From contig JAHJCZ010000155.1 of NCBI GenBank assembly GCA_018812705.1, forward strand, positions 1-63,029: DNA of 63,029 nt, in the 5' to 3' direction. The notes beneath the pieces were generated by a model. The model was not told the origin of the DNA and ran no database searches. It saw only the letters and a list, made by a program, of their open reading frames with translations. The translations under genes and the position numbers were made by a program. Below, piece after piece: positions 34,782-62,039 of the stretch. Each line of letters opens with the position of its first letter. The stretch's first letter is position 1. This stretch comes from Candidatus Omnitrophota bacterium (GTDB lineage Bacteria; Omnitrophota; Gorgyraeia; Zapsychrales; Zapsychraceae).

Positions 34782-34855
34782 CAGGCCTGGTAGGATTTGA
34801 ACCTACAACCTTCGGTTTTGGAGACCGTCGCTCTGCCAGTTGGAGCTACAGGCCT
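34782..34855 (-). tRNA. trnW: tRNA-Trp(CCA); 3' CCA not encoded
   Basis: Acceptor AGGCCTG/CAGGCCT, anticodon loop CT-CCA-AA, GTTCAAATC T-loop. Confidence 0.96.
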
Positions 34856-35096: not shown

Positions 35097-35169
<73 letters not shown>

Positions 35170-46309: not shown

Positions 46310-47725
46310 TTACAAATCAGCAGATATCTCGGGGGTAATGATAGTTGGTGTAATAAAGATCAATAAGTCAGTTTTATCAATATCCTTAGAAGTCTTGGTA
46401 AATAATTTTCCAAATATCGGGATATCTCCTAAAAATGGCACTTTTTTCTTTACATCTACTACTTTATCCTTAACTAAGCCGCCAATAACCAAAGTTTCAC
46501 CATCCTTAACCATAACTTTAGTAGAAGCTTGCTCAATACTTAGTTTTGGAACTGCAGAACCACTTGCAGCATCTGTAACATCACCTAAATTATCAGTTAT
46601 ACTTGGTTCAACATCAAGCGTAATGATCCCTGCAGCTAAACTAACATGCGGAGTAACTTTCAAGACTATTCCTATTTTTTTATACTCCCAGCCTGATAGT
46701 TGCCAGCTTCCGGTTTCGTCATTAAAAAACTTTAATGGATATGGGTGCTCAGTTCCCACATCAATCCTTGCTTCATGATTATCCAATGTGACAATTCTAG
46801 GATTAGAAAGAATATTCGTATCTGTTCTTTCTGCTAACATTTTGAACACCGCTTGTAAATTCGCAAAACTAAGAGTTCCATTAGTAATTGCAGAAGCAGT
46901 TGATGTTACTCCACCAGTATCTACATCCGGGTTGATATATTTATTATTCATTACAGGGGGTGTGAACGGAAATGTATGTGTTATGGAAGAACCCGTAACA
47001 GAAGCTTGCGTAGTCCATTCAATCCCAAGATGCTCACTATCATCTAAAACTGTTTCAATAATCTTACTTTCAATTAGAACTTGTGGAGTAGTAGCATCCA
47101 GGCCTTTAATGATTTTTGCCATTATAACTTGTTTGGTTGCTGTGTCTGTAACGATCAGAGTATTAGTTCTTTCATCGAAGTTAACGTTCCCTCTTTCTGA
47201 TTTCATTTTTTCAAGAGATTCGACGATCTCTGATGCCTTTCCAAAATTAAGCATAAATATTTCGGTCTCTAAAGGCTCTTGCTCCGAAAGAAGAAGAGAA
47301 TCCTCTCTTCTTTTTTTCATATCTTCAATAGTGGTAACAACGATTATATTTCCCTTTTGCTCATATGCATATCCATATGTTTGCAATATTACTTCCAGAG
47401 CTTGTTCCCAAGGAACATCCTTAAGTTGTATCGTAACTACCCCGACTACTTCAGGACTTGTAACAATATTTATACCACTTTTAAAAGCAAGTATTTTCAG
47501 GACATTCCTAATATCCGCTTCTCGGAAATCCAAGCTTACTTCCCCTCCATCAGACATCATAACATCATCTGCTGATTGAGAAGCATCCTCAACTTCAGAA
47601 CCAGCAGCATTTTGAGCATTAAGTCTTCCAACGTCTTTTTGGGCGAAAACACAATCAACTTTAACAAAAGAGAGCATCATAAATAACCCTAAGATTAAAA
47701 TTATCAATAGATTTTTCCTGGACAT
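46310..47725 (-). CDS. pilQ: Type IV pilus secretin (short, no AMIN domains)
   Basis: SLDFREADIR N0 domain, DERTNTLIV, QVLIESKIIE, LSNPRIVTLDN, VPFLGDIPIFG.LF; follows pilMNOP. Confidence 0.92.
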   Translation of the reverse strand: MSRKNLLIILILGLFMMLSFVKVDCVFAQKDVGRLNAQNAAGSEVEDASQSADDVMMSDGGEVSLDFREADIRNVLKILAFKSGINIVTSPEVVGVVTIQLKDVPWEQALEVILQTYGYAYEQKGNIIVVTTIEDMKKRREDSLLLSEQEPLETEIFMLNFGKASEIVESLEKMKSERGNVNFDERTNTLIVTDTATKQVIMAKIIKGLDATTPQVLIESKIIETVLDDSEHLGIEWTTQASVTGSSITHTFPFTPPVMNNKYINPDVDTGGVTSTASAITNGTLSFANLQAVFKMLAERTDTNILSNPRIVTLDNHEARIDVGTEHPYPLKFFNDETGSWQLSGWEYKKIGIVLKVTPHVSLAAGIITLDVEPSITDNLGDVTDAASGSAVPKLSIEQASTKVMVKDGETLVIGGLVKDKVVDVKKKVPFLGDIPIFGKLFTKTSKDIDKTDLLIFITPTIITPEISADL

Positions 47726-47726
47726 A

Positions 47727-48086
47727 TTAATCCTCCTTTTTTAACTGCAACTCAAAAATCTTGTTTCCTTTAATTAGATATACCTTTTCTCTTTTAATCT
47801 CATGAACAACAAAGTCACCTACCTTATCCTTAAGCTTAACAATTTTACCATTGATTATAGCAAGACTACTATCTCCATCACCTAGCATCACGCCCTCGAG
47901 AGATAAGTCAGAAATTGAAAGACTATCATCATAATTCTCAATAATGCCCTCAGTGCTTACCAAAGGCAGCATTGGGTCCCTTTTGCCTTGATCATCATAT
48001 TTTAAAATATCCTCTTCGGCAAAAGTAGCATTTACCGTCATAACGATCAAACAACAAACAATAATTGTAAATTTCATAAACCTCAT
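47727..48086 (-). CDS. pilP: PilP-like pilus assembly protein
   Basis: YDDQGKRDP..PL motif, L.GV...A.ING..V..G..V HR-domain pattern, synteny. Confidence 0.7.
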   Translation of the reverse strand: MRFMKFTIIVCCLIVMTVNATFAEEDILKYDDQGKRDPMLPLVSTEGIIENYDDSLSISDLSLEGVMLGDGDSSLAIINGKIVKLKDKVGDFVVHEIKREKVYLIKGNKIFELQLKKED

Positions 48087-48095
48087 ATATTATTC

Positions 48096-48698
48096 CTACT
48101 TTTTTCCTTTTAACTCCTCATAAACAACAGCATCCAATGTTATCTCCACTAAATGTTTTTTCTCTCCTCTTGATGATATGATCCCGAAAGAGCTCACTTT
48201 AAAGAATATGTCACCACGTTCAAGTTCACTTAAAAACCTTCCAAAATCATGATAACCGCTCGTAGCCTTAATAAATATTGGCAAGCTGTAATAACGCCTC
48301 TCCTCATTCTCTAATAATATTTGCTGATCTTGCGCATCCGGCATGATCTGATCGATTTTAACTCCATTGTCATCAGCCATTCGAGAAATATTTTCCAGAA
48401 TAAGAGGAACTTCTTCTTTAAATTTCAGTTTTGCATTTGATTTTGCTACATCATCACTTATTTTTGCAACTTCTAATTCGTACTGTTTTGATCTTAGGAT
48501 ATCATCTTTAGCTTTCTTAATATCTTCCGATAGCGATCGAATTTCTGGGCCGATCTTAGATAAAGAAGCTATCTGCGGCCTCATAAGAACAAAATAATCT
48601 AAAAGAAAGACTGAAAATAAGATGCCACCCAAAATATAGTAGATAACTTTTTCATCTACGCTTTCTATATAGGACGATATTTTGTTCTGCAATGTCAT
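48096..48698 (-). CDS. pilO: Type IV pilus assembly protein PilO
   Basis: N-terminal TM, coiled coil, EVP.ILE.I, YHDFGRFL..LE. Confidence 0.88.
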   Translation of the reverse strand: MTLQNKISSYIESVDEKVIYYILGGILFSVFLLDYFVLMRPQIASLSKIGPEIRSLSEDIKKAKDDILRSKQYELEVAKISDDVAKSNAKLKFKEEVPLILENISRMADDNGVKIDQIMPDAQDQQILLENEERRYYSLPIFIKATSGYHDFGRFLSELERGDIFFKVSSFGIISSRGEKKHLVEITLDAVVYEELKGKK

Positions 48699-49285
48699 TT
48701 TTTTCCCAATCTAGATGTTATTAAAAAATCAGCAACATCCACTTTCTTGATCTTTCTCATTTGTATTGAGCCTAATTCCAGATCCGTTAGATCCGTCAAA
48801 AAATTTTCATCTTGCTTAAGATTTGCAGTAAATTTATGTACTCCGATCATTTCTTTATTTTGTCTGGAGATTGCACTACCCTCTACAAAGAACGCATCTT
48901 CATTAAACGCTATCTTCCTTAGCCAAACCCCTTTGGGAAGGTTATCGCTTAAAATATTCATTTTCTGTGACCAAATGACCTTTTCCTCTTCTGTAAGTTT
49001 CTTTATTGCGCTTTGCTTTTTCTGAAGCATCCTAAGTTCACTGATCACAACATCAACTTTCTCTTTTTCCGGAGCGATCTCCTCCCAAGATAGTTTTAAT
49101 TTATTATGGGTTGCTAACTTAGACACATTAATGACAAGTAAAATAACATGAACCAAAAATAGCAATATGATTAATCCTCCACCTAGTCCAATAACTACCT
49201 CAAGAGGCAGCTTAAATCCTCCGACAAAGAAAACCTTCTTCTTTTTTTTCCTTAAATGTAACGGAACTAAATTGATCTCAATCAT
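48695..49285 (-). CDS. pilN: Type IV pilus assembly protein PilN
   Basis: IEINLVP PilM-binding motif, TM helix, LP.GVWL; start moved to ATG 49285. Confidence 0.9.
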   Translation of the reverse strand: MIEINLVPLHLRKKKKKVFFVGGFKLPLEVVIGLGGGLIILLFLVHVILLVINVSKLATHNKLKLSWEEIAPEKEKVDVVISELRMLQKKQSAIKKLTEEEKVIWSQKMNILSDNLPKGVWLRKIAFNEDAFFVEGSAISRQNKEMIGVHKFTANLKQDENFLTDLTDLELGSIQMRKIKKVDVADFLITSRLGKK

Positions 49286-50333
49286 ATTCATATAAAGCCA
49301 ATCCAAAGGCAACTCCCAGCTGAAGAGCCTTTTTGTTCAATTCATCAACATTTATTTCTGGTGAGACGCTTAAAGCCTTAAGTGGATTCCAACTTGCAAC
49401 TTCCATTTCTAAATTGTCCCCCAAAACATCAATGATACCGTCTAGCAAAGAGCCTCCACCAGTTACGAGCAATTTATTCACCTCTTTACTTTTTTCTGTG
49501 GAAAAATAATCAATAGACAACCTTAATTCCTGAACAATATTCATAAGAGTCGACTCACAAGCAGCTCGTACTTCACTAACTCTTTTCTCTGGTTGACATT
49601 TTAGCTTTTCAGCTTCGTCTAAACTAATCCCCAAGGTATTGCTTATTCTCTTTGTAAAATCAGTTCCACCTACAAAAATATCTCGGGTAAATCTTGGAGA
49701 TTTGTTTGCAATTATCATGAATGTGCTTACAGACTCTCCAATATCCAACAATGCCACTATTTCATCTTTACCTTCATCTTCTTTTTCTAATGAAAAATTC
49801 AAAGCATTGACCAATGCAGCTGGGTTCAAACCAATAAATTCTGCCTGGTATCCTAAGCTTGAAATAAGCTGCGTTCTCTGGTCAATCATCTCTTTTTTTG
49901 CTGCAGATGCCATAACAGCCATTTGCTTGCTCTTCTTGTCACCATCTAAAATATAACAATCTGTATAAATTTGATCTTGAGAAAACGGAAAATATTTATC
50001 AGCTTCTATAGAAAAAGAGTTGCGCATATCATCCAAAGCCATTCTAGGCATATCAATATAACGGATCAAAGTACCTTTTCCAAAAACAGCAGTATATAGA
50101 GTATGTGGCGGTTTTTTTAATTTTGCAATTAATGTCTTTATCGCTTCTGCTGTCCCATTTTTTCGTGAGGATTCAGTTGCCCAGCTAACTAACTCATACT
50201 CGTTATTCTCTTTTTTTATTTCAACTAACTTACAACTATTTAAACCAATATCTATTCCAACAGCTGTGCCTTTAGGCTTGTCAGGAAGAAATTTCTTTAT
50301 TATACCAAAATAGTTGTTTAGCAATGAATTCAT
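49278..50333 (-). CDS. pilM: Type IV pilus assembly protein PilM
   Basis: Actin-like VGIDIG, LDIGE, GG.DFT..I, LVTGGGS, A.GLAL. Confidence 0.93.
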   Translation of the reverse strand: MNSLLNNYFGIIKKFLPDKPKGTAVGIDIGLNSCKLVEIKKENNEYELVSWATESSRKNGTAEAIKTLIAKLKKPPHTLYTAVFGKGTLIRYIDMPRMALDDMRNSFSIEADKYFPFSQDQIYTDCYILDGDKKSKQMAVMASAAKKEMIDQRTQLISSLGYQAEFIGLNPAALVNALNFSLEKEDEGKDEIVALLDIGESVSTFMIIANKSPRFTRDIFVGGTDFTKRISNTLGISLDEAEKLKCQPEKRVSEVRAACESTLMNIVQELRLSIDYFSTEKSKEVNKLLVTGGGSLLDGIIDVLGDNLEMEVASWNPLKALSVSPEINVDELNKKALQLGVAFGLALYEYD

Positions 50334-50494: not shown

Positions 50495-50531
50495 AAAAAA
50501 AAGAGAGGGCTTAAATAGCCCCCTCTTTTTT
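50495..50531 (-). terminator. Intrinsic terminator after the pilin gene
   Basis: AAAAAAGAGGGGGC-TATTTAA-GCCCTCTC followed by T8. Confidence 0.88.
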
Positions 50532-50555: not shown

Positions 50556-50951
50556 TTATTGCTGACTTAAAACTCCACCTGTTGTAACTGTAAAATGCGT
50601 AGTTCCTGATGTTCCAAGACTCATAGCATTTGCATCAAAAGTATAATAACCTGCATTAAACGTACATGCATAAGTAAAACCTGATGATGCCTGTCCACAA
50701 TAAGCTGCGTTAAGATAAGGTGGTGTTGCGCCGGTCAATGAAGCTTCCGCTCCTGGATACACACCATTTGCAGATGTTTGGAATGTTTCTGCCGCTGTTG
50801 ACATCGTCTTAAGCGTGCTTTGTGCTAATGCATCATTTGCTGAAATCTTAGCTCTTAGCAAGTTTGGAATTGCAATTGCTGCTAACAAAGCGATAATTGC
50901 AACAACGATCATGATTTCTACTAGCGTAAAACCTTTTTGGCTCATTCTCAT
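50556..50951 (-). CDS. pilA: Major type IV pilin (class III signal peptide)
   Basis: MRMSQKG/FTLVEIMIVVAIIALLAAIAIPN with G-1, F+1, E+5; two C-terminal Cys; strong AGGAGG SD; own terminator. Confidence 0.9.
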   Translation of the reverse strand: MRMSQKGFTLVEIMIVVAIIALLAAIAIPNLLRAKISANDALAQSTLKTMSTAAETFQTSANGVYPGAEASLTGATPPYLNAAYCGQASSGFTYACTFNAGYYTFDANAMSLGTSGTTHFTVTTGGVLSQQ

Positions 50952-51110
50952 GATACCCTCCTTCTGAGTTTGTGAGCTTAAAGTTTACATTTGCCATCCT
51001 AAGCTAAGACAAGACAAGATATATATAAGGATAATTACATTTACAAAATATCTTAGCTCTGCTACGCAAACGACTAACTTTTCGCTCAGATTAAGTTAAA
51101 ATTATGTTTG

Positions 51111-51140
51111 ATTCTACCACCTCCTTTCTTTCTTTGTCAA
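51111..51140 (-). promoter_or_regulatory. Proximal pilin promoter P2
   Basis: TTGACA-18nt-TAGAAT with extended -10 TGG. Confidence 0.6.
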
Positions 51141-51260
51141 TTCATTTATAAACTCATCATCTGTCTGCTTTCGCACCAAAACAAAACAAGGTGGGACAAA
51201 AAAGAATATTACCCTCATAAAAAAAATAACTATGTTTTTTTCCAATGTAGCCATTTTCAT
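51114..51260 (-). CDS. Putative 48-aa hydrophobic small protein downstream of the riboswitch terminator
   Basis: GAGGA SD 9 nt before ATG; MKMATLEKNIVIFFMRVIFFFVPPCFVLVRKQTDDEFINELTKKERRW*. Confidence 0.35.
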   Translation of the reverse strand: MKMATLEKNIVIFFMRVIFFFVPPCFVLVRKQTDDEFINELTKKERRW

Positions 51261-51274
51261 CACAAACAATCCTC

Positions 51275-51307
51275 AAAAAAAATCCCACTCCATTATAAGG
51301 AGCGGGA
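51275..51307 (-). terminator. Riboswitch expression-platform terminator
   Basis: TCCCGCTCC-TTATAAT-GGAGTGGGA followed by T8. Confidence 0.88.
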
Positions 51308-51321
51308 CCATAAAATTTCCC

Positions 51322-51404
51322 TTGTGGCAACTGGCTGTCCTATTTTCTCTTAGGACCCTATAGCTTTGTGCCCCATCCTTACGAATGGTTTACCATTTAC
51401 ACAA
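51322..51404 (-). ncRNA. Cyclic di-GMP-I (GEMM-I) riboswitch aptamer
   Basis: UUGUG-UAAAU-GGUAAACC-AUUC-GUAA-GGAU-GGGGCACAAAGCUAUAGG-GUCCUA..UAGGAC-AGCCAGUUGC-CACAA: P1 UUGUG/CACAA, GNRA tetraloop, AAAG junction, P3 stem. Confidence 0.9.
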
Positions 51405-51425
51405 CAAAATCAAACTTGCAGTTGA

Positions 51426-52521: not shown

Positions 52522-53727
52522 TTATATTACTTGTGTAATGTTCAAAATAGGCATAAACAAAGCAATAACAATAAAACCAATAACGATACCAAGAACCCCT
52601 ATTATCAAAGGCTCAATAATGCTAGTCAAACCTTCAACTGCTGCGTCAACTTGATCATCATAAAATTCTGCTATTTTTAGAAGCATTTTTTCCATCTGCC
52701 CCGATTTCTCGCCAATGCTGATCATCCTTGTAACCATGGGTGGAAACACTTTGCTTTTACTTAATGGTGTCGCAATACTTTCTCCCTCGCGAACACAATT
52801 TTTTACATCTTCAACAACATCTTCTAGAACAGTATTTCCAATAGTCTTACCAACTATATCTAGAGATTCCAGAATTGGAACACCGCTTTGTATAAGCGTA
52901 GCAAGCGTTCTACTAAAACGACTAATCGCAACTTTACAAAAAAGCTCGCCAAAAAGAGGCATATTCAAAAGTGCGCCATCTATTGCACGCGCACCTTTTT
53001 CAGTTCTATACCATCTTCCAATAAGAAAAATTGCTATCACTAAAAAGCCAATTAGCCAAAGCAAATAACTTTTAAGCCCTTCGCTTATGCCAATTAACAT
53101 TTGAGTCATAGCAGGCAATTCCCTATCAAAAGAATCATATATACCAGCAAAAGTTGGAACAACTTTAACTAATAAAATAACCGTAATAATTGTCGCCATT
53201 GAAACAATTACTGAAGGATATATTAATGCAGCCTTGACTTTCCTTTGCAATTTAAGAGATTTCTCCATATATGTTGATATGCGGTCTAATACTTGGCTTA
53301 AAACACCACCAGTCTCTCCGACTCTTACCATATTTACAAAAAGAGTATCAAAAACATTAGGATGTTTATTGAATGCTGCAGAAAGACTTGCCCCATGCTG
53401 AATATCATCATAAACATTTGTTAGCACCTTTTGAAATAAAGGATGGGCCACTTGGTCTCGTAAAGCATCAATTCCTTGTAGTATAGGAATACCTGCATCG
53501 ACCATTGTCGCTAATTGTCTTGTGAAAATAACGATCTCATCAGGCTTTACTTTTTTTGATTGAAAAGAAGATCCAGGCGCTTTGGAATCCTTAATTTCAG
53601 CAACAGATATAATAACAAGTTTCTTTTTTCTTAAAGCTTCAATTACTGATTCTTTGTTATCAGCAGAAATCTTTCCGGAAACATTCCCTGATTCTGCATT
53701 CTTTGCAACATATTTAAACGTCGCCAT
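52522..53727 (-). CDS. pilC: Type IV pilus inner-membrane platform protein (GspF/PilC)
   Basis: FTRQLATMVDAGIP, GETGGVL, YP.VI, GEKSGQM, EPLII. Confidence 0.95.
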   Translation of the reverse strand: MATFKYVAKNAESGNVSGKISADNKESVIEALRKKKLVIISVAEIKDSKAPGSSFQSKKVKPDEIVIFTRQLATMVDAGIPILQGIDALRDQVAHPLFQKVLTNVYDDIQHGASLSAAFNKHPNVFDTLFVNMVRVGETGGVLSQVLDRISTYMEKSLKLQRKVKAALIYPSVIVSMATIITVILLVKVVPTFAGIYDSFDRELPAMTQMLIGISEGLKSYLLWLIGFLVIAIFLIGRWYRTEKGARAIDGALLNMPLFGELFCKVAISRFSRTLATLIQSGVPILESLDIVGKTIGNTVLEDVVEDVKNCVREGESIATPLSKSKVFPPMVTRMISIGEKSGQMEKMLLKIAEFYDDQVDAAVEGLTSIIEPLIIGVLGIVIGFIVIALFMPILNITQVI

Positions 53728-53813: not shown

Positions 53814-54272
53814 TTAATTTCCACCATAAACGTTATTCAATGCTTGATCAATTTCCATTCTAGTGGAAATAAAAGGCACTATTTCACAGCTTGTATCTTC
53901 CTTTAATTTTTGAATAAGCGAACTATCCAAAGGATTTGACATAACTATACTTAAAATATTACCAACACAATCTAACGGCACCAGATGGTGCTTGTAAGCT
54001 ACCTGTCTTGGAATGATATTCAAAACTTCTTTGTTTATTTCATACTGATCTATTGCGATATAAGGAAAATAACACTGTTCAGATAAAGCCGCAACAATAT
54101 CTTTTTCACTAACAAATCCCAGATTTGTTAGAATTTCACCAATGAATATCTTCTCCTTCTTCTGAAGCTTCAAAGCTCTGTTTAGCTGTTCTCTGACAAC
54201 AGTCTTTCTCTTAAGAAGAATCTCCCCTAAGCGACTTTTCTTTTGAACAAAATGTCCAGATAGAACAACCAT
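53814..54272 (-). CDS. Stand-alone MshEN (GspE/PilB N-terminal) domain protein A
   Basis: RLGEILL...QLNRALKLQ-x5-FIGEILTNLGFV...ALSEQ plus N1 subdomain; no ATPase; AAGGAG SD. Confidence 0.85.
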   Translation of the reverse strand: MVVLSGHFVQKKSRLGEILLKRKTVVREQLNRALKLQKKEKIFIGEILTNLGFVSEKDIVAALSEQCYFPYIAIDQYEINKEVLNIIPRQVAYKHHLVPLDCVGNILSIVMSNPLDSSLIQKLKEDTSCEIVPFISTRMEIDQALNNVYGGN

Positions 54273-54470: not shown

Positions 54471-56177
54471 TTATTCATCCATAGCCACTCTTAATACTTC
54501 TTCAATAGTTATTTGTCCAGAGATGCATTTTTCAATAGCATCCTCCCAAAGAGTCACCATTCCATTGACCTCACACGCATGTCGTTTTATCTCATCAGAT
54601 GAGCATCCCCTTAATAACATATTCTTGATCTCATCTGTTACCTCTAGCACTTCCATCAAAGCCATTCTCCCAGAATAGCCTGTGCCACGGCAAGCCTCAC
54701 AACCTTTTCCATGATAGAAATCTGTATTTGGCTTGAATTTATAATCGAGCTTATCCAATACTTTTTTTGGTATCTCTACTTTTTCTTTACAGCGTTTACA
54801 AATTTTCCTACATAGTCTTTGGGCATTTACCAAAACAAGGCTAGATGCAACCAAAAATGGCTCAACTCCCATATCAACCAATCTTGTTAACGTACCAGCA
54901 GCATCATTAGTATGCAGTGTAGAAAAAACCAATTGCCCTGTTAAAGATGCTTTAACTGCTATGTCAGCTGTTTCATTATCACGAATTTCCCCGATCATTA
55001 CAATGTCAGGACTCTGTCTTAATACTGCCCTTAACCCTTCAGCAAAAGTCAATCCTATTTCAGGTCTGGCCTGGATCTGTGTCAATCCTTCAACCAAATA
55101 CTCAACTGGATCTTCAATAGTAATAATATTCTTATCAACCGTATTTAGCTCATTAATGATCGAGTATAAAGTTGTCGATTTTCCACTACCCGTAGGTCCA
55201 GTAACCAAAAACATACCAAACGGTTTAATAATGCCATTCTTTAAAACAGCCAGTGACTTTTCAGAAATACCTAAGCCATCAAGCCCAACAGCTAAGTTAC
55301 TTTTATCAAGAACACGCAAAACAACTTTTTGCCCAAATGTCGTAGGCAGAACAGAAACACGAAAATCAATTTCTTTTCCAGCGACCTTCATCTTAAAACG
55401 CCCATCTTGAGGAACATAATTTGAAGTTATATCTAACCTAGACATTATCTTTATTCTTACGATAACAGCATTCTGGTTTTCCTTTGGCAAATTCAAAATA
55501 TCTCTCAAAACGCCATCTATTCTATAACGAACTCTAACACCCTCTTCTGAAGGTTCAATATGAATATCAGAAGCTTTCTGCCTAATAGCTTCTTTGACAA
55601 TAAGATTGACCATTCGAATAACCGGGGCCTTCTCTCCATCATCTGCAGAACCACCACTTCCATCTTCTTCTTGGTCCATGACTATTTCAAAATCATCGAC
55701 CTGAATATCCTGAGTAATTTCAGTCACACTCACACTTTCCGGAACTCCGTAATAATTATCAATTGCCTTAATGATTTCCGTATTAGTGCTCATAACCACA
55801 TCGATATCTTTGCTAGTGATGCTTTTTAGATCATCAACAATAAAAACATCTAGAGGGTCTGAAAGAGCCACCGTAAGGGTATTCTCGAGCAGCGAAAGAG
55901 GAATTATTTTATATTGCCTTGCAACTCTCTCCGGCACGATCTCTTGCAAATAAGGATCGATCTTATATTTACTTAAATTAATAAAAGGAATATTTAACTC
56001 TCGAACAAGAAGCATCAAAAGGTCATCCTCGTTTATCAAACCTTGTTCGATCAAAGCTTTATCAAGACCAATATTCTTTCTCTTTTGCAAGACAATAGCA
56101 GCATCAAGTTCTTTTTTGCTGATCTGCTGAGTCTCAATAAGTGTATTTAATATTTTATCTTTTAATGTCTTTGTCAC
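54471..56177 (-). CDS. pilB: Type IV pilus extension ATPase, paralog 1
   Basis: GPTGSGKST, TIEDPVEY, MIGEIRD, STLHTND, CKRC/CEAC Zn site. Confidence 0.9.
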   Translation of the reverse strand: MTKTLKDKILNTLIETQQISKKELDAAIVLQKRKNIGLDKALIEQGLINEDDLLMLLVRELNIPFINLSKYKIDPYLQEIVPERVARQYKIIPLSLLENTLTVALSDPLDVFIVDDLKSITSKDIDVVMSTNTEIIKAIDNYYGVPESVSVTEITQDIQVDDFEIVMDQEEDGSGGSADDGEKAPVIRMVNLIVKEAIRQKASDIHIEPSEEGVRVRYRIDGVLRDILNLPKENQNAVIVRIKIMSRLDITSNYVPQDGRFKMKVAGKEIDFRVSVLPTTFGQKVVLRVLDKSNLAVGLDGLGISEKSLAVLKNGIIKPFGMFLVTGPTGSGKSTTLYSIINELNTVDKNIITIEDPVEYLVEGLTQIQARPEIGLTFAEGLRAVLRQSPDIVMIGEIRDNETADIAVKASLTGQLVFSTLHTNDAAGTLTRLVDMGVEPFLVASSLVLVNAQRLCRKICKRCKEKVEIPKKVLDKLDYKFKPNTDFYHGKGCEACRGTGYSGRMALMEVLEVTDEIKNMLLRGCSSDEIKRHACEVNGMVTLWEDAIEKCISGQITIEEVLRVAMDE

Positions 56178-57946
56178 TACTTCTTTTTATCCTCATCAGG
56201 TGCTGTCAATCTCAAAACTTCTTCTATTGTTGTTAACCCTTCTACGGCTTTCACCAAACCATCTTCTCTCATAGTCCTCATACCTTCTTGACGGGCAATT
56301 TGTTTAATCTTTATTTCGCCTACACGCGCCAATACAGCCTCTTTTACTTTTTGGCTAAAAACAAGGATTTCAGTAATACCAACCCGGCCTTTATAACCAG
56401 TATTAAAACAATGCTTACAACCTTTTGGCCTCATAACTTCAATATTCTGTTTTGGGTATAATTTATCAAGTCCTACTTTTGAAGTTATCTCAGGAGTAAC
56501 TATATACGACTCACAACATTTCGGACATACCCTTCTTAGTAGCCTTTGAGCAATGATAGCCAACACTGAAGAACATATTAAAAATGGCTCAATTCCCATA
56601 TTCATCATGCGGACTATTGAACCAGCAGCAGTTGTTGTGTGAAGAGAGCTCAAAACAAGGTGACCAGTTAAAGCAGCCTTAACAGCAATGTCTAATGTTT
56701 CTTTATCGCGAATTTCTCCTATCATAATAATATCTGGATCTTGTCTAAGAATTGATCTTAGGCTCGAGGAAAAAGTTAATCCCATTTTGGGTTTTATATT
56801 AACTTGAATGATCCCTTTCATCTGATATTCAACTGGATCCTCAACAGTAACGATATTCTTCTCAGGAGAGTCTACATACTTTAAAATGGAATAAAGTGTC
56901 GTCGTCTTACCACTTCCTGTCGGCCCACAAGTTAAAATCAAGCCATGTGGCTTCACTGAACATTCCTTTAAACGCTGCAAAGCTGTTTCTTCAAAACCTA
57001 AATTTTCAACATCAAGCACTGTTCCCTGCTGATCTAAAACCCTTAATACGATTTTCTCACCAACAGCCGTAGGCAAAACATTAACACGAAAGTCAACCTC
57101 TCTGTCCCCTGATATAATGGTCTTAAATCTTCCATCTTGAGGCAACCTGTGTTCTGAAATATCTAAATTTGAAATAACCTTTATTCTTGAAACCAAAGGA
57201 AAGTGCAACACTTTTGTCATTCGATCAATCTCTCGAATAACCCCATCAATTCTGTACCTAATGCGGACTGCTTTTTCTAATGGCTCAATAAACACATCGC
57301 TGGCTTTTGCAAAGACTGCTTGCTGGATAATCGTGTCAGTTAACTTAATAATTGGCGCCTCATCAGAGATTTCCTCAACAGATGACTGGCCATCGCTATG
57401 TCCATCTTTAATCAATTCAAGATCTTCAGTATCTCTAAAATCCTGGATTATCTCATCAAAGGTCTCACTATTTTTTTCCTGCTCTGGACTTTCCCTATCT
57501 TGCCCATCCTCCTGCTTAAAATAATATTTCTCAATAGCATTATGAATATCCGAAACCCTACATATAATTGGAATAATCGTATAGCCTGTCAGAGCTTTAA
57601 CATTATCTATGATAAATATATTTAATGGATCAGCCATCGCTAGGGTCAACTGATCTCCCAATAAAGAAACAGGTATAATTTGATATTTGATGGCGATATC
57701 TTTTGGAATAGTTTGAATTACATCTGGAGAAATATTGAAGCTAACGATCTTGATTAACGGCAGCTCAAGGCTTTCACTTAAAACTTGAGTCAATTGATCT
57801 TGACTCACAAAGTTCATTTCAACGAGTATCTTACTTAATTCCCCTCCTGCTCTCTTCTGCTCAAGTAAAGCTTTTTCAAGCTCCTTTGCAGTAATAAGCT
57901 CATCTCGAATAAGAATTTCTTTTAAACGATCTTTAAAAGATGCCAT
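56177..57946 (-). CDS. pilB: Type IV pilus extension ATPase, paralog 2
   Basis: GPTGSGKTT, TVEDPVEY, MIGEIRD, SSLHTT, CPKC/CKHC Zn site. Confidence 0.9.
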   Translation of the reverse strand: MASFKDRLKEILIRDELITAKELEKALLEQKRAGGELSKILVEMNFVSQDQLTQVLSESLELPLIKIVSFNISPDVIQTIPKDIAIKYQIIPVSLLGDQLTLAMADPLNIFIIDNVKALTGYTIIPIICRVSDIHNAIEKYYFKQEDGQDRESPEQEKNSETFDEIIQDFRDTEDLELIKDGHSDGQSSVEEISDEAPIIKLTDTIIQQAVFAKASDVFIEPLEKAVRIRYRIDGVIREIDRMTKVLHFPLVSRIKVISNLDISEHRLPQDGRFKTIISGDREVDFRVNVLPTAVGEKIVLRVLDQQGTVLDVENLGFEETALQRLKECSVKPHGLILTCGPTGSGKTTTLYSILKYVDSPEKNIVTVEDPVEYQMKGIIQVNIKPKMGLTFSSSLRSILRQDPDIIMIGEIRDKETLDIAVKAALTGHLVLSSLHTTTAAGSIVRMMNMGIEPFLICSSVLAIIAQRLLRRVCPKCCESYIVTPEITSKVGLDKLYPKQNIEVMRPKGCKHCFNTGYKGRVGITEILVFSQKVKEAVLARVGEIKIKQIARQEGMRTMREDGLVKAVEGLTTIEEVLRLTAPDEDKKK

Positions 57947-58395
57947 TATTTTTGTTTATAGTATTTATCAATGGATTGTTTAATATCACTAGACGTGCTT
58001 ACAAAGAACTGAACAATACATCCTGTAATCAGTTCAATGTCCTCTACTGATTTCACATTTAACGGATCAGACATTGCTATTGTTAAACTTTTACCTATCT
58101 TATCAATTGGGATCAGACAAAACTGTCTACAAACATTTTCCGGAATTGCATTGATCACTTCATCATCAATTTCATAATTTAGTAAGGGTAAATATGGGAA
58201 ACCATACTGACATGTTATTGCTTGCGCAATATCTTTCTCTGTGGCAAAATTCAATTCAACTAGAACTTCGCCTATCAGTCCACCATTCTTTTCTCTGTAC
58301 TCCAAAGCCTCTTCGATTTGAGCATGATTTATAACGCCTCTTTCTATCAGAAGCTCTCCCAACTTTTTATGAGTATCTCTGTTAAATTGTTTCAT
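57946..58395 (-). CDS. Stand-alone MshEN domain protein B
   Basis: KLGELLIERGVI...IEEALEYR-x5-LIGEVLVELNF...AITCQ plus N1 subdomain; no ATPase. Confidence 0.85.
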   Translation of the reverse strand: MKQFNRDTHKKLGELLIERGVINHAQIEEALEYREKNGGLIGEVLVELNFATEKDIAQAITCQYGFPYLPLLNYEIDDEVINAIPENVCRQFCLIPIDKIGKSLTIAMSDPLNVKSVEDIELITGCIVQFFVSTSSDIKQSIDKYYKQK

Positions 58396-58757: not shown

Positions 58758-59129
58758 TTATTCTTCGGTCAGTCTTTTAATGCTAGCAAGCAACTCCTCA
58801 GCATTGTAAGGTTTCATTAAATATTCATCAGCCCCTGCTTCATTCCCCCAGAACTTGTCGCTCTCTGAAGTTTTTGCTGTTAAAAGAATGACTGGAATAT
58901 GTTCTGTTTCAGCATCATCCTTGATCAGGCGGCAAACTTTATATCCATTTGGAGCCGGCATCATAACATCTAAAATCACTAAATCTGGCATATGTTCTTT
59001 TGTTAAACTTAAAGCCTCTTCTCCAGAAGCTCCAGTAATGACTTCGTATCCATTTGCTTTTAATCGTAAACTTATAACTTTAACAATTTCAGGCTCGTCA
59101 TCAATAATTAATATTTTTTTTCTAGACAT
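58758..59129 (-). CDS. Single-domain response regulator (receiver only)
   Basis: ILIIDDE, LVILDVMMP, LLTAK, YLMKPY. Confidence 0.95.
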   Translation of the reverse strand: MSRKKILIIDDEPEIVKVISLRLKANGYEVITGASGEEALSLTKEHMPDLVILDVMMPAPNGYKVCRLIKDDAETEHIPVILLTAKTSESDKFWGNEAGADEYLMKPYNAEELLASIKRLTEE

Positions 59130-59705: not shown

Positions 59706-62039
59706 CTAAGTCAATCTTTCGATTAGATCTATTACAACATTAATATTACCAGTCTTTTCAATCACTGGAATTTCACCTAATTCACCACATTCTTCTCTAA
59801 CCTCACTCAAATGTTTATCAGTAAGAACAATTATTGGAATAATTGCCAGTTGTGAATTTTGTTTCAATCTTCCCAAAACTTCATATCCATTCATATTTGG
59901 CATAACAATGTCTAGCAATATCAAGTCTACTTGCTTTGTTTTCAAATAATCAAGAGCCTCCTCGCCATCAAAAACCTGCTCTGTAATAATATCGCGTCGC
60001 TCTAATCTTGATGAAAGCAACCTGCCGATCTGTGGATGGTCATCAACAATGAGAACCTTTTTCTTTCTTTCACATTCTTCTAACGCTCTTTCTTGTAATT
60101 CATTTTTGTTCAAGCCATCTCTAGGATGCATAACAAAACCGAATTTCACTTTTATTCCTAATGCATCTTTCATCATCGCAACTCTTTCCCGAACAACACT
60201 TTTTATCTTATCTAATAAAATCATTCCACCTTTTTTATCTGTATCAGCAAGGGCGATATGAATTGTTTCTTGATCATATAATATATATTTATCTGTTGTT
60301 CTCGATACTAATCTTGCCAAAATCTCAAAAACAATATTTATTATTTCATTTGCAAAAGCTTCTCCGAACTTTGTCCTGATCATATCCATTTCAAAAAAAC
60401 GAGCAATAATAAACACCGACTCCTTGTTCTTCATTCTTGCCTCTGTAAATATTTTCTCAACATCATTATCAAATGTTTGTTTTAATTTCAATTTACTTGG
60501 TAGAGTAAAAAAGAAATTTGTGCCCTTGCCTATCTCACTCTCTGCCCATATCTGCCCACCATGAAGATCTATTAAAGATTTACTGATAGTCAAGCCTAAC
60601 CCAGTGCCTTTTATACCTGGACCATGTATCCTCCCGAACTGAGTAAACTTATCAAAGAGCTTTGAAATATTATCCTTTTCAATTCCAACTCCTGTGTCTG
60701 AAACCCTGCATAAACATCCTCCACCTTGACCTGCAATCTCAAGTTCTATTTCCCCGCCTTCAGGTGTAAACTTATGCGCATTATTCAATAAATTTGTAAC
60801 GACTTGTATTATTTTCTCTTCATCAATAAAGAAAAACATCTCATTATCAGGGAATATCGTTTTAATCTTTTGCTGCTTTGTATCTAAAACCTTTTGGTAA
60901 TCATCAGTTATTTTATTCATTGTAGATTTTAGGTCCACAATGGTCTTTCTTAACGTGATCTCTCCAGATTCTATTTTCGAAATATCTAATAAATCGTTTA
61001 CAATTGTATGTAACCTGTGAAGATTGTCCTTCGAAGCATTTAAAAGCTCTTTTTGCTCTTCATTAATCTTCCCAACTACGCCGTCTAAAATAAGATTTAT
61101 GCACTCAGTTGAGATCGCAAGTGGAGTTCTTAGCTCATGAGAAACAGTAGAGACAAAATCGGACTTCAGCTGATCCAATTTCTTAAGTTCAAAATTCTTC
61201 CTTTCAAGGTTCTTATATAGGGTCTTAATTGACTCATTGGTTTTTTGAAGCCCCCAAGATTGTTGTTCTAGCTTATCTCGAGCATTAACTAAATCCTTTT
61301 CAGCATTCCTTCTTGCTGTAATATCGCTAAATGATTCAATACCGCCAATAATTTTGCCCTCATCATTTTTTAGGATATCAGCATTCTTAAGAATAGTTAT
61401 TCTGTCCCCATTTTTTTTCTTAATAGAACACTCAGTCTCAATGATCGGCTTCTCTACATCATTACTATAAAGCCCGCAGAAAGACTCGCAGGGATATTCA
61501 GAGAACATATTACATTTTTTACCAATAACTTCTTGAGATTTATAACCTGTTAGCTCTTCCGCTTTTTTATTCCAACCAGTCACAATTTTGTTTTCATTCA
61601 CCGTAAAGACAGCACTCGGAACAACTTTAAAAATACGCTCCAAATCCTTTTTTGCTTTAATTACAGCTTCCTCAGCACGCTTATATACTGTTATATCGCT
61701 CATTAAATGAATTGAACCTAATAGATCTTTATTATCATCAAAAAGAGGTGCCGTTTGAACAAAGAACCATTTATTAAAAAGAGGCTCCCAATATTCCTTT
61801 TTTTCATATTTTTTGGAGTCCTTTAACGCACAATATGGACAATCAGATATAGGTTCATCCTTACCATGCATGACCTCATAGCATTTCTTGTTCAAGAACG
61901 CACTTTCGTCCTTATCAGTAAATTTTAAAAATGCCTTATTCACTTTCTTTATTCCATGATCTAGATCAAGAATAAAAATAAATTCTTCTAAAGAATCAAA
62001 AGCGGGAGACCAAAATCGATTGTAATCAATGTTGTTCAT
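59706..62039 (-). CDS. Cytoplasmic hybrid sensor kinase: PAS-PAS-HisKA-HATPase-degenerate GGDEF-REC
   Basis: SHELRTPL, NLLNNAHKF, DTGVGI, GTGLGL; GGDEF-fold segment ...RTTDKYILYDQETI...HPRDG; REC VLIVDD/LLDIVMP; no TM helix seen. Confidence 0.88.
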   Translation of the reverse strand: MNNIDYNRFWSPAFDSLEEFIFILDLDHGIKKVNKAFLKFTDKDESAFLNKKCYEVMHGKDEPISDCPYCALKDSKKYEKKEYWEPLFNKWFFVQTAPLFDDNKDLLGSIHLMSDITVYKRAEEAVIKAKKDLERIFKVVPSAVFTVNENKIVTGWNKKAEELTGYKSQEVIGKKCNMFSEYPCESFCGLYSNDVEKPIIETECSIKKKNGDRITILKNADILKNDEGKIIGGIESFSDITARRNAEKDLVNARDKLEQQSWGLQKTNESIKTLYKNLERKNFELKKLDQLKSDFVSTVSHELRTPLAISTECINLILDGVVGKINEEQKELLNASKDNLHRLHTIVNDLLDISKIESGEITLRKTIVDLKSTMNKITDDYQKVLDTKQQKIKTIFPDNEMFFFIDEEKIIQVVTNLLNNAHKFTPEGGEIELEIAGQGGGCLCRVSDTGVGIEKDNISKLFDKFTQFGRIHGPGIKGTGLGLTISKSLIDLHGGQIWAESEIGKGTNFFFTLPSKLKLKQTFDNDVEKIFTEARMKNKESVFIIARFFEMDMIRTKFGEAFANEIINIVFEILARLVSRTTDKYILYDQETIHIALADTDKKGGMILLDKIKSVVRERVAMMKDALGIKVKFGFVMHPRDGLNKNELQERALEECERKKKVLIVDDHPQIGRLLSSRLERRDIITEQVFDGEEALDYLKTKQVDLILLDIVMPNMNGYEVLGRLKQNSQLAIIPIIVLTDKHLSEVREECGELGEIPVIEKTGNINVVIDLIERLT

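Follow-up and report, generated by a model that had tools for sequence, protein, structure and literature searches.

Candidatus Omnitrophota are widespread and mostly uncultured bacteria; some of their cells are very small and may depend on a host, and a role in attachment is ascribed to their type IV pili. Whether a second messenger raises or lowers the transcription of a pilin gene in such an organism is the question raised by contig JAHJCZ010000155.1, a stretch of 63,029 nt that is referred to here as the window. An initial annotation had recognized in it a class I riboswitch for cyclic di-guanosine monophosphate (c-di-GMP), with an intrinsic terminator, upstream of the major pilin gene, and had left it open whether the ligand turns the gene ON or OFF. 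The analysis described here points to OFF: the unit is probably a canonical class I c-di-GMP switch that is transcribed from its own promoter and acts through its terminator, with an additional share of pilin transcription supplied by a second, riboswitch-independent promoter. All coordinates refer to the minus strand unless mentioned otherwise, and as the names P1 and P2 denote both aptamer helices and promoters, it is specified in each case which is meant.

Identity of the aptamer

Searching the whole window with Rfam cmscan returned a single riboswitch match, at 51403..51322 (E = 4.3e-12), in agreement with the GEMM-I aptamer class assigned in the initial annotation. The best-scoring model is RF03167 (c-di-GMP-I-GGC), with 61.5 bits against a cut-off of 59, and one other family of clan CL00126 also lies above its own gathering score for the window; close homologues score best with RF01051 (58 bits; cut-off, 35). 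The match to RF01051 that had been anticipated is thus borne out at the level of the clan and class, above the cut-off, while the family with the best score is a different one.

The c-di-GMP-I aptamer occupies 51322..51404 and consists of helix P1 (UUGUG/CACAA, 51404-51400 with 51326-51322), helix P2 (51388-51383 with 51378-51373), which is capped by a GUAA tetraloop (51382-51379), and helix P3 (about 51365-51329). The key bases are G20 (51394), A47 (51367), and C92 (51327), and the core pairs are G21-C46 (51393-51368) and U22-A45 (51392-51369). Comparison of the alignment with the sequence places every nucleotide that had been named earlier, i.e., helix P1, G20, G21-C46, U22-A45, A47, the GUAA loop, and C92, exactly where it had been reported. 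Furthermore, the typing of the aptamer as G20/C92 extends to its relatives, in which both nucleotides are invariant across the 30 copies that could be anchored, and A47 is likewise the canonical base.

Position 47 separates the two candidate families, being G in the consensus of RF03167 (GACGCGAA) and A in that of RF01051 (GACGCAAA), where the meaning of "GGC" is read from a comparison of the two consensus lines. The window carries A (GGCACAAA), as do all alignable homologues. Since this nucleotide is A and not G, the ligand-contacting triad G20/A47/C92 is, by its sequence, that of canonical class I, and the GGC-variant identity suggested by RF03167 was rejected for want of its diagnostic G. 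The 3',3'-cyclic GMP-AMP (cGAMP) type, GEMM-Ib, was also rejected; it needs A20, and the window and all anchored homologues have G20. The higher score of RF03167 is probably due to the short P3, which lacks the CUAAG...UAUG tetraloop receptor of the RF01051 consensus, the GUAA tetraloop on helix P2 being present. In its entirety, the predicted transcript folds into aptamer and terminator at -48.1 kcal/mol (z = -4.5), a value that none of 200 shuffles equalled. By sequence and structure, the window element is confirmed as a genuine class I c-di-GMP riboswitch aptamer.

Conservation across Omnitrophota

A covariance model built from ten copies was searched in Omnitrophota loci and in loci of other phyla that encode PilC relatives. 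In the former it detected 35 aptamers, spread over 32 loci, and in the latter, about 35 in number, none. Each of the 35 aptamers is preceded by pilC and followed by the gene for a pilin whose N-terminus, GFTLVEIMIVVAIIALLAAIAIPNL, is invariant. On the model alignment of the 35 copies, 97.9% of the cells are paired, compared with 33-49% in slid controls; nine of the 17 pairs change on both sides in a compensatory manner, and the aptamer pairing level was reached by none of 500 shuffles. Helix P1 is short (4-7 bp) yet covaries, with GC, AU, UA, GU, and CG among its pair types. Compared with its closest relative (L001), the window has an aptamer that is 100% identical and flanks that have diverged, and the terminators of the two differ by two substitutions, with pairing kept in both. 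An independent exact-pattern scan of metagenomes found 38 loci with the aptamer.

Several variations on this layout were observed. Two tandem aptamer-terminator-pilin modules are present in L018 (4835, 5615), L027 (3865, 5000), and L036 (8207, 8875); here the pilin gene is duplicated, and each copy has a switch to itself. Insertions of one or two additional hairpins are present within P3 in L016, L017, L026, L035, and L037 and between helices P2 and P3 in L021 and L059. The aptamers with insertions grow to 130-170 nt and keep their core nucleotides.

No RNA sequencing run containing the region was found, as only DNA metagenomes match, and no literature on a riboswitch in Omnitrophota was found. 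The conserved module is composed of a known riboswitch class and a known type of expression platform, located in an under-studied phylum. What is added here is its phylum-wide conservation together with two predictions for function, namely a direction of regulation attributed to a specific helix and a tandem-promoter layout.

The terminator and its predicted competitor

Helix P1 is connected to the terminator by the linker GGGAAAUUUUAU (51310..51321), of which, in the folds, bases 51320-51317 can weakly extend helix P1 and U51310 joins the antiterminator described below. The terminator scan identified the intrinsic terminator GGUCCCGCUCC-UUAUAAU-GGAGUGGGAUU, followed by U8, at 51275..51309. 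Its stem pairs 51309-51299 with 51291-51281 around a 7-nt loop (51298-51292), and the U8 run lies at 51282-51275. The hairpin (-17.7 kcal/mol) has 11 pairs counting G-U, six of them G-C, and nine when the G-U closing pairs are left out, which is the length given for it before. Of the 35 homologues, 32 have a hairpin with a T-run at a distance of 31-62 nt downstream of the aptamer; the stems differ and the pairing is kept.

The folded aptamer and the terminator do not overlap, helix P1 included, and both are present together in the minimum free energy (MFE) fold. Thus, ligand binding alone cannot prevent termination. Two partners had been suggested for the terminator 5' arm (UGGUCCC), namely the GGGA of the linker and the GGAC/CCA in the 3' side of the aptamer; neither pairing reaches -8 kcal/mol in a sliding duplex scan of the window. 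The same scan places the 3' strand of helix P2 together with junction J2/3 at -18.6 kcal/mol. The resulting antiterminator would consist of an aptamer half, GUAAGGAUGGGGCACA (51367..51382), which comprises the helix P2 loop and 3' strand, C44, A45, C46, and A47, and a terminator half, UGGUCCCGCUCCUUAU (51295..51310), which takes in one base of the linker, the entire 5' arm, and four bases from the start of the loop. With the transcript truncated just short of the terminator 3' arm, both the MFE and the centroid folds pair 51382-51367 with 51310-51295 through 15 pairs, and the antiterminator fold (-30.9 kcal/mol) is slightly below the aptamer fold (-29.4 kcal/mol). Since nothing pairs better with the terminator 5' arm than the helix P2 loop and 3' strand with J2/3 (-18.6 to -19.1 kcal/mol), the question that the initial annotation had left undecided would be settled toward OFF.

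The support for this helix comes from shuffle and positional statistics, and the positions of bulges differ between loci. In the window, the antiterminator duplex has an energy of -19.1 kcal/mol, compared with -11.4 for dinucleotide shuffles of the terminator segment; across 31 copies the median z is -2.0, with 19 of the 31 at or below the 5% level. When the whole upstream region is scanned, the helix P2 loop and 3' strand with J2/3 emerges as the strongest partner for the 5' arm in 22 of 29 genome loci; in 24 of 25 independent metagenome loci whose terminator is clear, this place is taken by the helix P2 3' strand or the J2/3 core. Additionally, the terminator follows the sequence of the helix that it would invade: loci with a helix P2 of CCACUC-GAAA-GGGUGG carry UUCGAGUG(G) in the terminator, and those with CCAUUC-GUAA-GGAUGG carry CCUAUUCCUUAU. 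About half of the loci retain a GUG directly outside the terminator stem, pairing with the CAC of the junction, in a linker that is otherwise unconserved. A second type of platform carries CUUUGUG, the exact complement of J2/3 CACAAAG, in its terminator 5' arm. These observations provide evidence, at the level of sequence, that the antiterminator pairing has been selected rather than being due to chance.

Promoters, spacer and pilin leader

Two promoter motifs flank the aptamer-terminator unit, both of which are near-consensus and of sigma-70 type, and from both we infer activity. Promoter P1 (51426..51454) combines TTGACA (51454-51449), a 17-nt spacer, and TGtTATACT with the -10 hexamer at 51431-51426, so that 11 of 12 positions agree with the consensus and the -10 is extended; the promoter lies 22 nt before aptamer helix P1, and its predicted transcription start is near 51419. 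The motif TTGACA-N16-18-TATACT precedes the aptamer at a fixed distance of about 45 nt in 31 of the 35 homologous copies, and likewise in 26 of 33 metagenome copies. Promoter P2 (51111..51140), composed of TTGACA, an 18-nt spacer, and TGgTAGAAT, also matches 11 of 12 positions and has its predicted start near 51104. Sites resembling TTGACA-N16-18-TAGAAT are located between terminator and pilin in 27 of the 35 copies, always 130-180 nt before the ATG. Sites with at least 11 of 12 matches occur at a background of 0.074 per kb in the homologous loci, most of them being promoters P1 and P2 themselves; the window has seven such sites on both strands. The position of the switch upstream of the pilin is to be read with some qualification: the pilin open reading frame (ORF) does follow, at a distance of about 320 nt that includes this second promoter between the terminator and the start codon. 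With this conserved promoter placed after the terminator, only a part of pilin transcription would be subject to the switch.

The spacer between the terminator and promoter P2 (51141..51274) is 134 nt long in the window and its closest relative and 8-30 nt in most relatives, in which the -35 hexamer of promoter P2 often lies 8-15 nt after the T-run. It is the least conserved part of the alignment of the window with L001, except for a block around UGUUUUGUUUUGGUGCGAAAGCAG, which is perfectly conserved between the two and may form a GAAA-capped mini-hairpin; the spacer also contains a stretch of A7...U8. A 51-codon ORF in the spacer (51269..51114) was considered as a gene and rejected, being absent from most homologous loci and having lost its first ATG in L001; it is probably non-coding.

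Downstream of promoter P2, the pilin 5' untranslated region (UTR; 50952..51104) is predicted to fold into a long closed rod that ends just before the Shine-Dalgarno sequence GGAGG (-37.4 kcal/mol, z = -2.2). Individual folds of 26 homologous UTRs (L001-L059) revealed comparable rods and common motifs: a motif at the 5' side, GAGCCAAUAGGUU, is paired with a segment that directly precedes the Shine-Dalgarno sequence, and conservation extends to an apical motif resembling GUAAUUAUCCU / CGUCAUUAUUCU. RNAalifold gave no consensus structure for the MAFFT alignment of these 26 UTRs, the alignment being too poor, and the pilin UTR has no match in Rfam. As modeled, the rod may represent an undescribed pilin-leader RNA motif. 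A sigma-54 promoter in this UTR, to which the conserved GAGCCAAUAAGUUGC had drawn attention, was rejected, as the GG/GC elements are missing.

Proposed mechanism and alternative readings

In the proposed mechanism, transcription would start at the near-consensus sigma-70-type promoter P1. Without ligand, the single-stranded J2/3 (C44-A45-C46-A47) would serve as a toehold for the future terminator 5' arm, which would pair at the junction and then invade the helix P2 hairpin to generate a helix of about 15 bp between 51382-51367 and 51310-51295; this antiterminator helix would block the terminator, so that the polymerase reads on over promoter P2 into the pilin gene. Once c-di-GMP is bound, the junction and helix P2 would be locked in the aptamer and the 5' arm left free, resulting in formation of the terminator and release of a transcript of about 143 nt. 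Both versions of the platform consume bases that contact or flank the ligand, and the ligand would thus withdraw the competitor and allow termination, i.e., act as an OFF signal. All seven functional class I switches of Clostridioides difficile are likewise transcriptional OFF switches (PMC6366702). The pilin mRNA would then be the sum of a share from promoter P2 and a share from promoter P1 that is removed by c-di-GMP, rather than the outcome of an all-or-none decision; how much each promoter contributes is something that we infer in outline from the layout.

Several points weigh against an OFF switch of this kind. In about half of the homologues, the MFE fold of the truncated transcript keeps the aptamer rather than the antiterminator, which fits a poised switch and is no proof of one. 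The helix P2 and terminator hairpins are alike, and some of their complementarity could be a by-product of this likeness. Two promoters of similar consensus quality would permit only modest, perhaps about two-fold, regulation, which is small for so conserved a device. Moreover, an OFF switch lowers the transcription of pilin and putative adhesin genes while the MshEN ATPases of the cluster are expected to be activated by c-di-GMP, an inconsistency that is unexplained. Finally, an ON switch exists within class I, Bc2 of Bacillus thuringiensis (PMC6366702).

This precedent leads to the converse reading, in which c-di-GMP prevents termination and a high level of it raises pilin transcription. It would agree with the common biology of the second messenger, which promotes pili and adhesion (PMC6366702), and would fit the MshEN-type ATPases of the cluster. 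We consider it unlikely, as the terminator overlaps no part of the aptamer, not even helix P1, and coexists with it in the MFE fold; the sole strong competitor of the 5' arm is the aptamer core, which the ligand would withdraw; nothing was found that would sequester the terminator exclusively in the folded state of the aptamer; and the GGGA/UCCC pairing, at 4 bp, falls short of -8 kcal/mol. Less likely still is a ligand other than c-di-GMP, be it 3',3'-cGAMP or an unknown ligand of the GGC variant: the score of RF03167 (61.5 bits against a cut-off of 59) speaks for it, and against it stand A47, which agrees with RF01051 and not with the G of RF03167, the G20 of all 30 anchored copies in place of the A of cGAMP-selective variants, the preference of close homologues for RF01051, and the MshEN, GGDEF, and, elsewhere, PilZ proteins encoded by nearby genes. 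Binding of c-di-GMP is the predicted property of the aptamer.

The arrangement of promoters suggests two further readings. The RNA of about 143 nt might stand alone as an abundant product, binding c-di-GMP in order to buffer or store it in the manner of merRNA (PMC3627812), with promoter P2 as the sole pilin promoter; its own near-consensus promoter, an efficient-looking terminator, and a next promoter within 8-30 nt in most loci are all compatible with such a role. We give this reading a low probability. A conserved antiterminator would be pointless in an RNA that is constitutively terminated, and a gene always follows (a pilin after 35 of 35 genome copies, and ORFs in the non-pilin loci), unlike merRNA, of which the absence of a conserved downstream gene and an expression comparable to that of structural RNAs are characteristic. 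Furthermore, nine of the 11 non-pilin loci that carry this aptamer lack promoter P2, and an ORF follows in them within about 60-280 nt; a cassette placed directly before ORFs without a second promoter has the classical cis layout, and hence the unit is an ordinary cis-acting leader to which promoter P2 has been added at pilin loci. Alternatively, read-through from promoter P1 and from the upstream pilBC operon could occlude promoter P2, which termination at high c-di-GMP would then free, so that the net effect of c-di-GMP could be positive. Such riboswitch-gated interference would be favored by the short distance of 8-15 nt between the T-run and the promoter P2 -35 hexamer in most loci and by the absence of a terminator between the upstream gene for a 340-aa protein and promoter P1, and it seems improbable to us, because read-through transcripts carry the complete pilin UTR and ORF, which offsets occlusion, and the gap in the window itself is 134 nt. 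More broadly, the unit might be a small RNA in its own right, strongly transcribed and able to bind c-di-GMP, that sits directly before the pilin promoter across Omnitrophota and buffers c-di-GMP or switches promoter P2 by ligand-gated interference, an idea that we regard as rather doubtful. To our knowledge, a riboswitch RNA with buffering or ligand-gated interference in this combination is undescribed on the sense strand. The reading that we favor is still the terminator-based OFF switch with an independent share from promoter P2.

The same cassette at other loci

In metagenome loci, the cassette of promoter P1, aptamer, and terminator is also found before very large secreted proteins of up to more than 1000 aa (L085, L088, L093, L094, L096, L097, L109, L111, L114, and L117), and it is before secreted proteins of more than 1000 aa that the second platform type (CUUUGUG) occurs. 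These proteins begin with a signal peptide, followed by either a conserved ATYYVRxDGGTxxQCTG...YPGSG motif or a APVIFYSDLTAGPNTGG motif, and their first 90 residues have no Pfam match; we take them to be probable surface proteins or adhesins within the same regulon. In a further metagenome locus, L106, the gene behind the aptamer encodes a PilZ-domain protein of 122 aa (Pfam 2.8e-9), and the ORFs further downstream include a pilin-like protein (MKKTNDGFSLVEVLL...).

The pilus cluster and its lineage

The window has a G+C content of about 35%, and nearly all of its genes lie on the minus strand. Its PilC shares 94% identity with the counterpart from "Omnitrophica WOR_2 bacterium RIFOXYA2_FULL_38_17", after which about 45 further relatives follow, from Candidatus Omnitrophota genomes assembled from metagenomes. 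DNA of the window is present in groundwater and biofilm metagenomes.

The type IV pilin itself (50556..50951, ATG at 50951) has 131 aa and begins with MRMSQKGFTLVEIMIVVAIIALLAAIAIPNLLRAK...; the prepilin leader, methylation motif, and hydrophobic helix expected of a type IV pilin are present (Pfam N_methyl, 4.9e-9, residues 2-28). A motif scan identified this ORF (50951..50556) as the sole prepilin in the 63-kb window. Its gene lies between pilC and pilMNOPQ and is followed by a strong terminator of its own, AGAGGGGGC-UAUUUAA-GCCCUCUCU with a U run (50495..50526), which was read from the sequence and given as the same palindrome on the plus strand by the terminator scan. The order of the unit is therefore promoter P1, aptamer, terminator, promoter P2, a UTR of about 150 nt, pilin, and terminator.

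This locus belongs to a cluster of type IV pilus genes. Pfam matches in it include a PilB-like ATPase of 589 aa that combines MshEN and T2SSE domains (57946..56177), two stand-alone MshEN proteins of 152 and 149 aa (58395..57946 and 54272..53814), and a secretin (47725..46310). A second PilB-like ORF, of 568 aa and T2SSE-like (56177..54471), was called from its sequence and position only, and PilC (53727..52522) and PilM, PilN, PilO, and PilP (50333..47727) were named from their sequence and their position in the cluster. The 340-aa protein upstream of promoter P1 (52497..51475) has a coiled-coil-looking sequence and no Pfam match. In other systems, MshEN binds c-di-GMP, by which pilus ATPases are activated; by analogy, c-di-GMP may act in this cluster at both the RNA and the protein level. 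A hybrid histidine kinase of 777 aa (59706..62039), in which Pfam recognizes PAS, HisKA, HATPase, weak GGDEF (30.6 bits), and receiver domains, and the adjoining single-domain receiver protein (58758-59129) are possible candidates for a local source or sensor of c-di-GMP. Elsewhere in the window, two ordinary tRNA genes (34782-34855 and 35097-35169; Rfam, 61.4 and 69.9 bits) lie upstream of an apparent rpoB/rpoC and ribosomal-protein region, as judged by ORF sizes and order alone.

Relation to known c-di-GMP switches

The aptamer resembles Vc2 of Vibrio cholerae, and RF01051 in general, in its three-helix fold, the triad G20/A47/C92, the G21-C46 pair, the GNRA tetraloop on helix P2, and its association with motility or surface genes; it differs in its short P3, which is without the 11-nt tetraloop receptor of the RF01051 consensus, and in having U-A instead of C-G as the 22-45 pair. 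With RF03167, the highest-scoring model for the window, it shares the short P3, in contrast to the consensus G47 of that family, which is A47 here.

In terms of the whole unit, the C. difficile switch Cd1 (Cdi-1-3, flgB operon) is similar in that a class I aptamer followed by a terminator acts as an OFF switch before an operon for motility or a surface organelle (PMC6366702). However, Cd1 has been tested experimentally, whereas the window unit is predicted from sequence, its putative antiterminator uses the helix P2 3' strand and J2/3, and it has a second promoter after the terminator. C. difficile Cdi-2-4 (pilA1) is a c-di-GMP switch with a terminator that lies directly before a major type IV pilin gene (PMC6366702), as in the window, yet its aptamer is of class II and the switch is ON, while that of the window is of class I and predicted to be OFF. 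Bdellovibrio merRNA has a c-di-GMP-I aptamer and its own strong promoter (PMC3627812), and a terminated short RNA is also predicted for the window; in contrast, merRNA is massively expressed and has no conserved downstream ORF, whereas the window unit has a gene and a conserved antiterminator. In Bc1 of B. thuringiensis, too, a class I aptamer is separated from the start codon by a long stretch with extra regulatory signals. These are a second terminator and a Zur site, with no internal promoter found (PMC11218506), unlike the conserved promoter of the window.

Implications for Omnitrophota

A switch that is conserved across the phylum before the sole pilin gene, before giant secreted proteins, and before a PilZ protein would constitute a concrete, testable c-di-GMP regulon. 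Since both promoters are near the Escherichia coli consensus, the system would be testable in vitro and in E. coli, thus circumventing the need to culture the organism. In addition, the more than 50 sequences provide a natural set in which the expression platform is predicted to attack the ligand-binding junction and helix P2, and not helix P1, and in which two versions of the platform appear to have been built on one aptamer.

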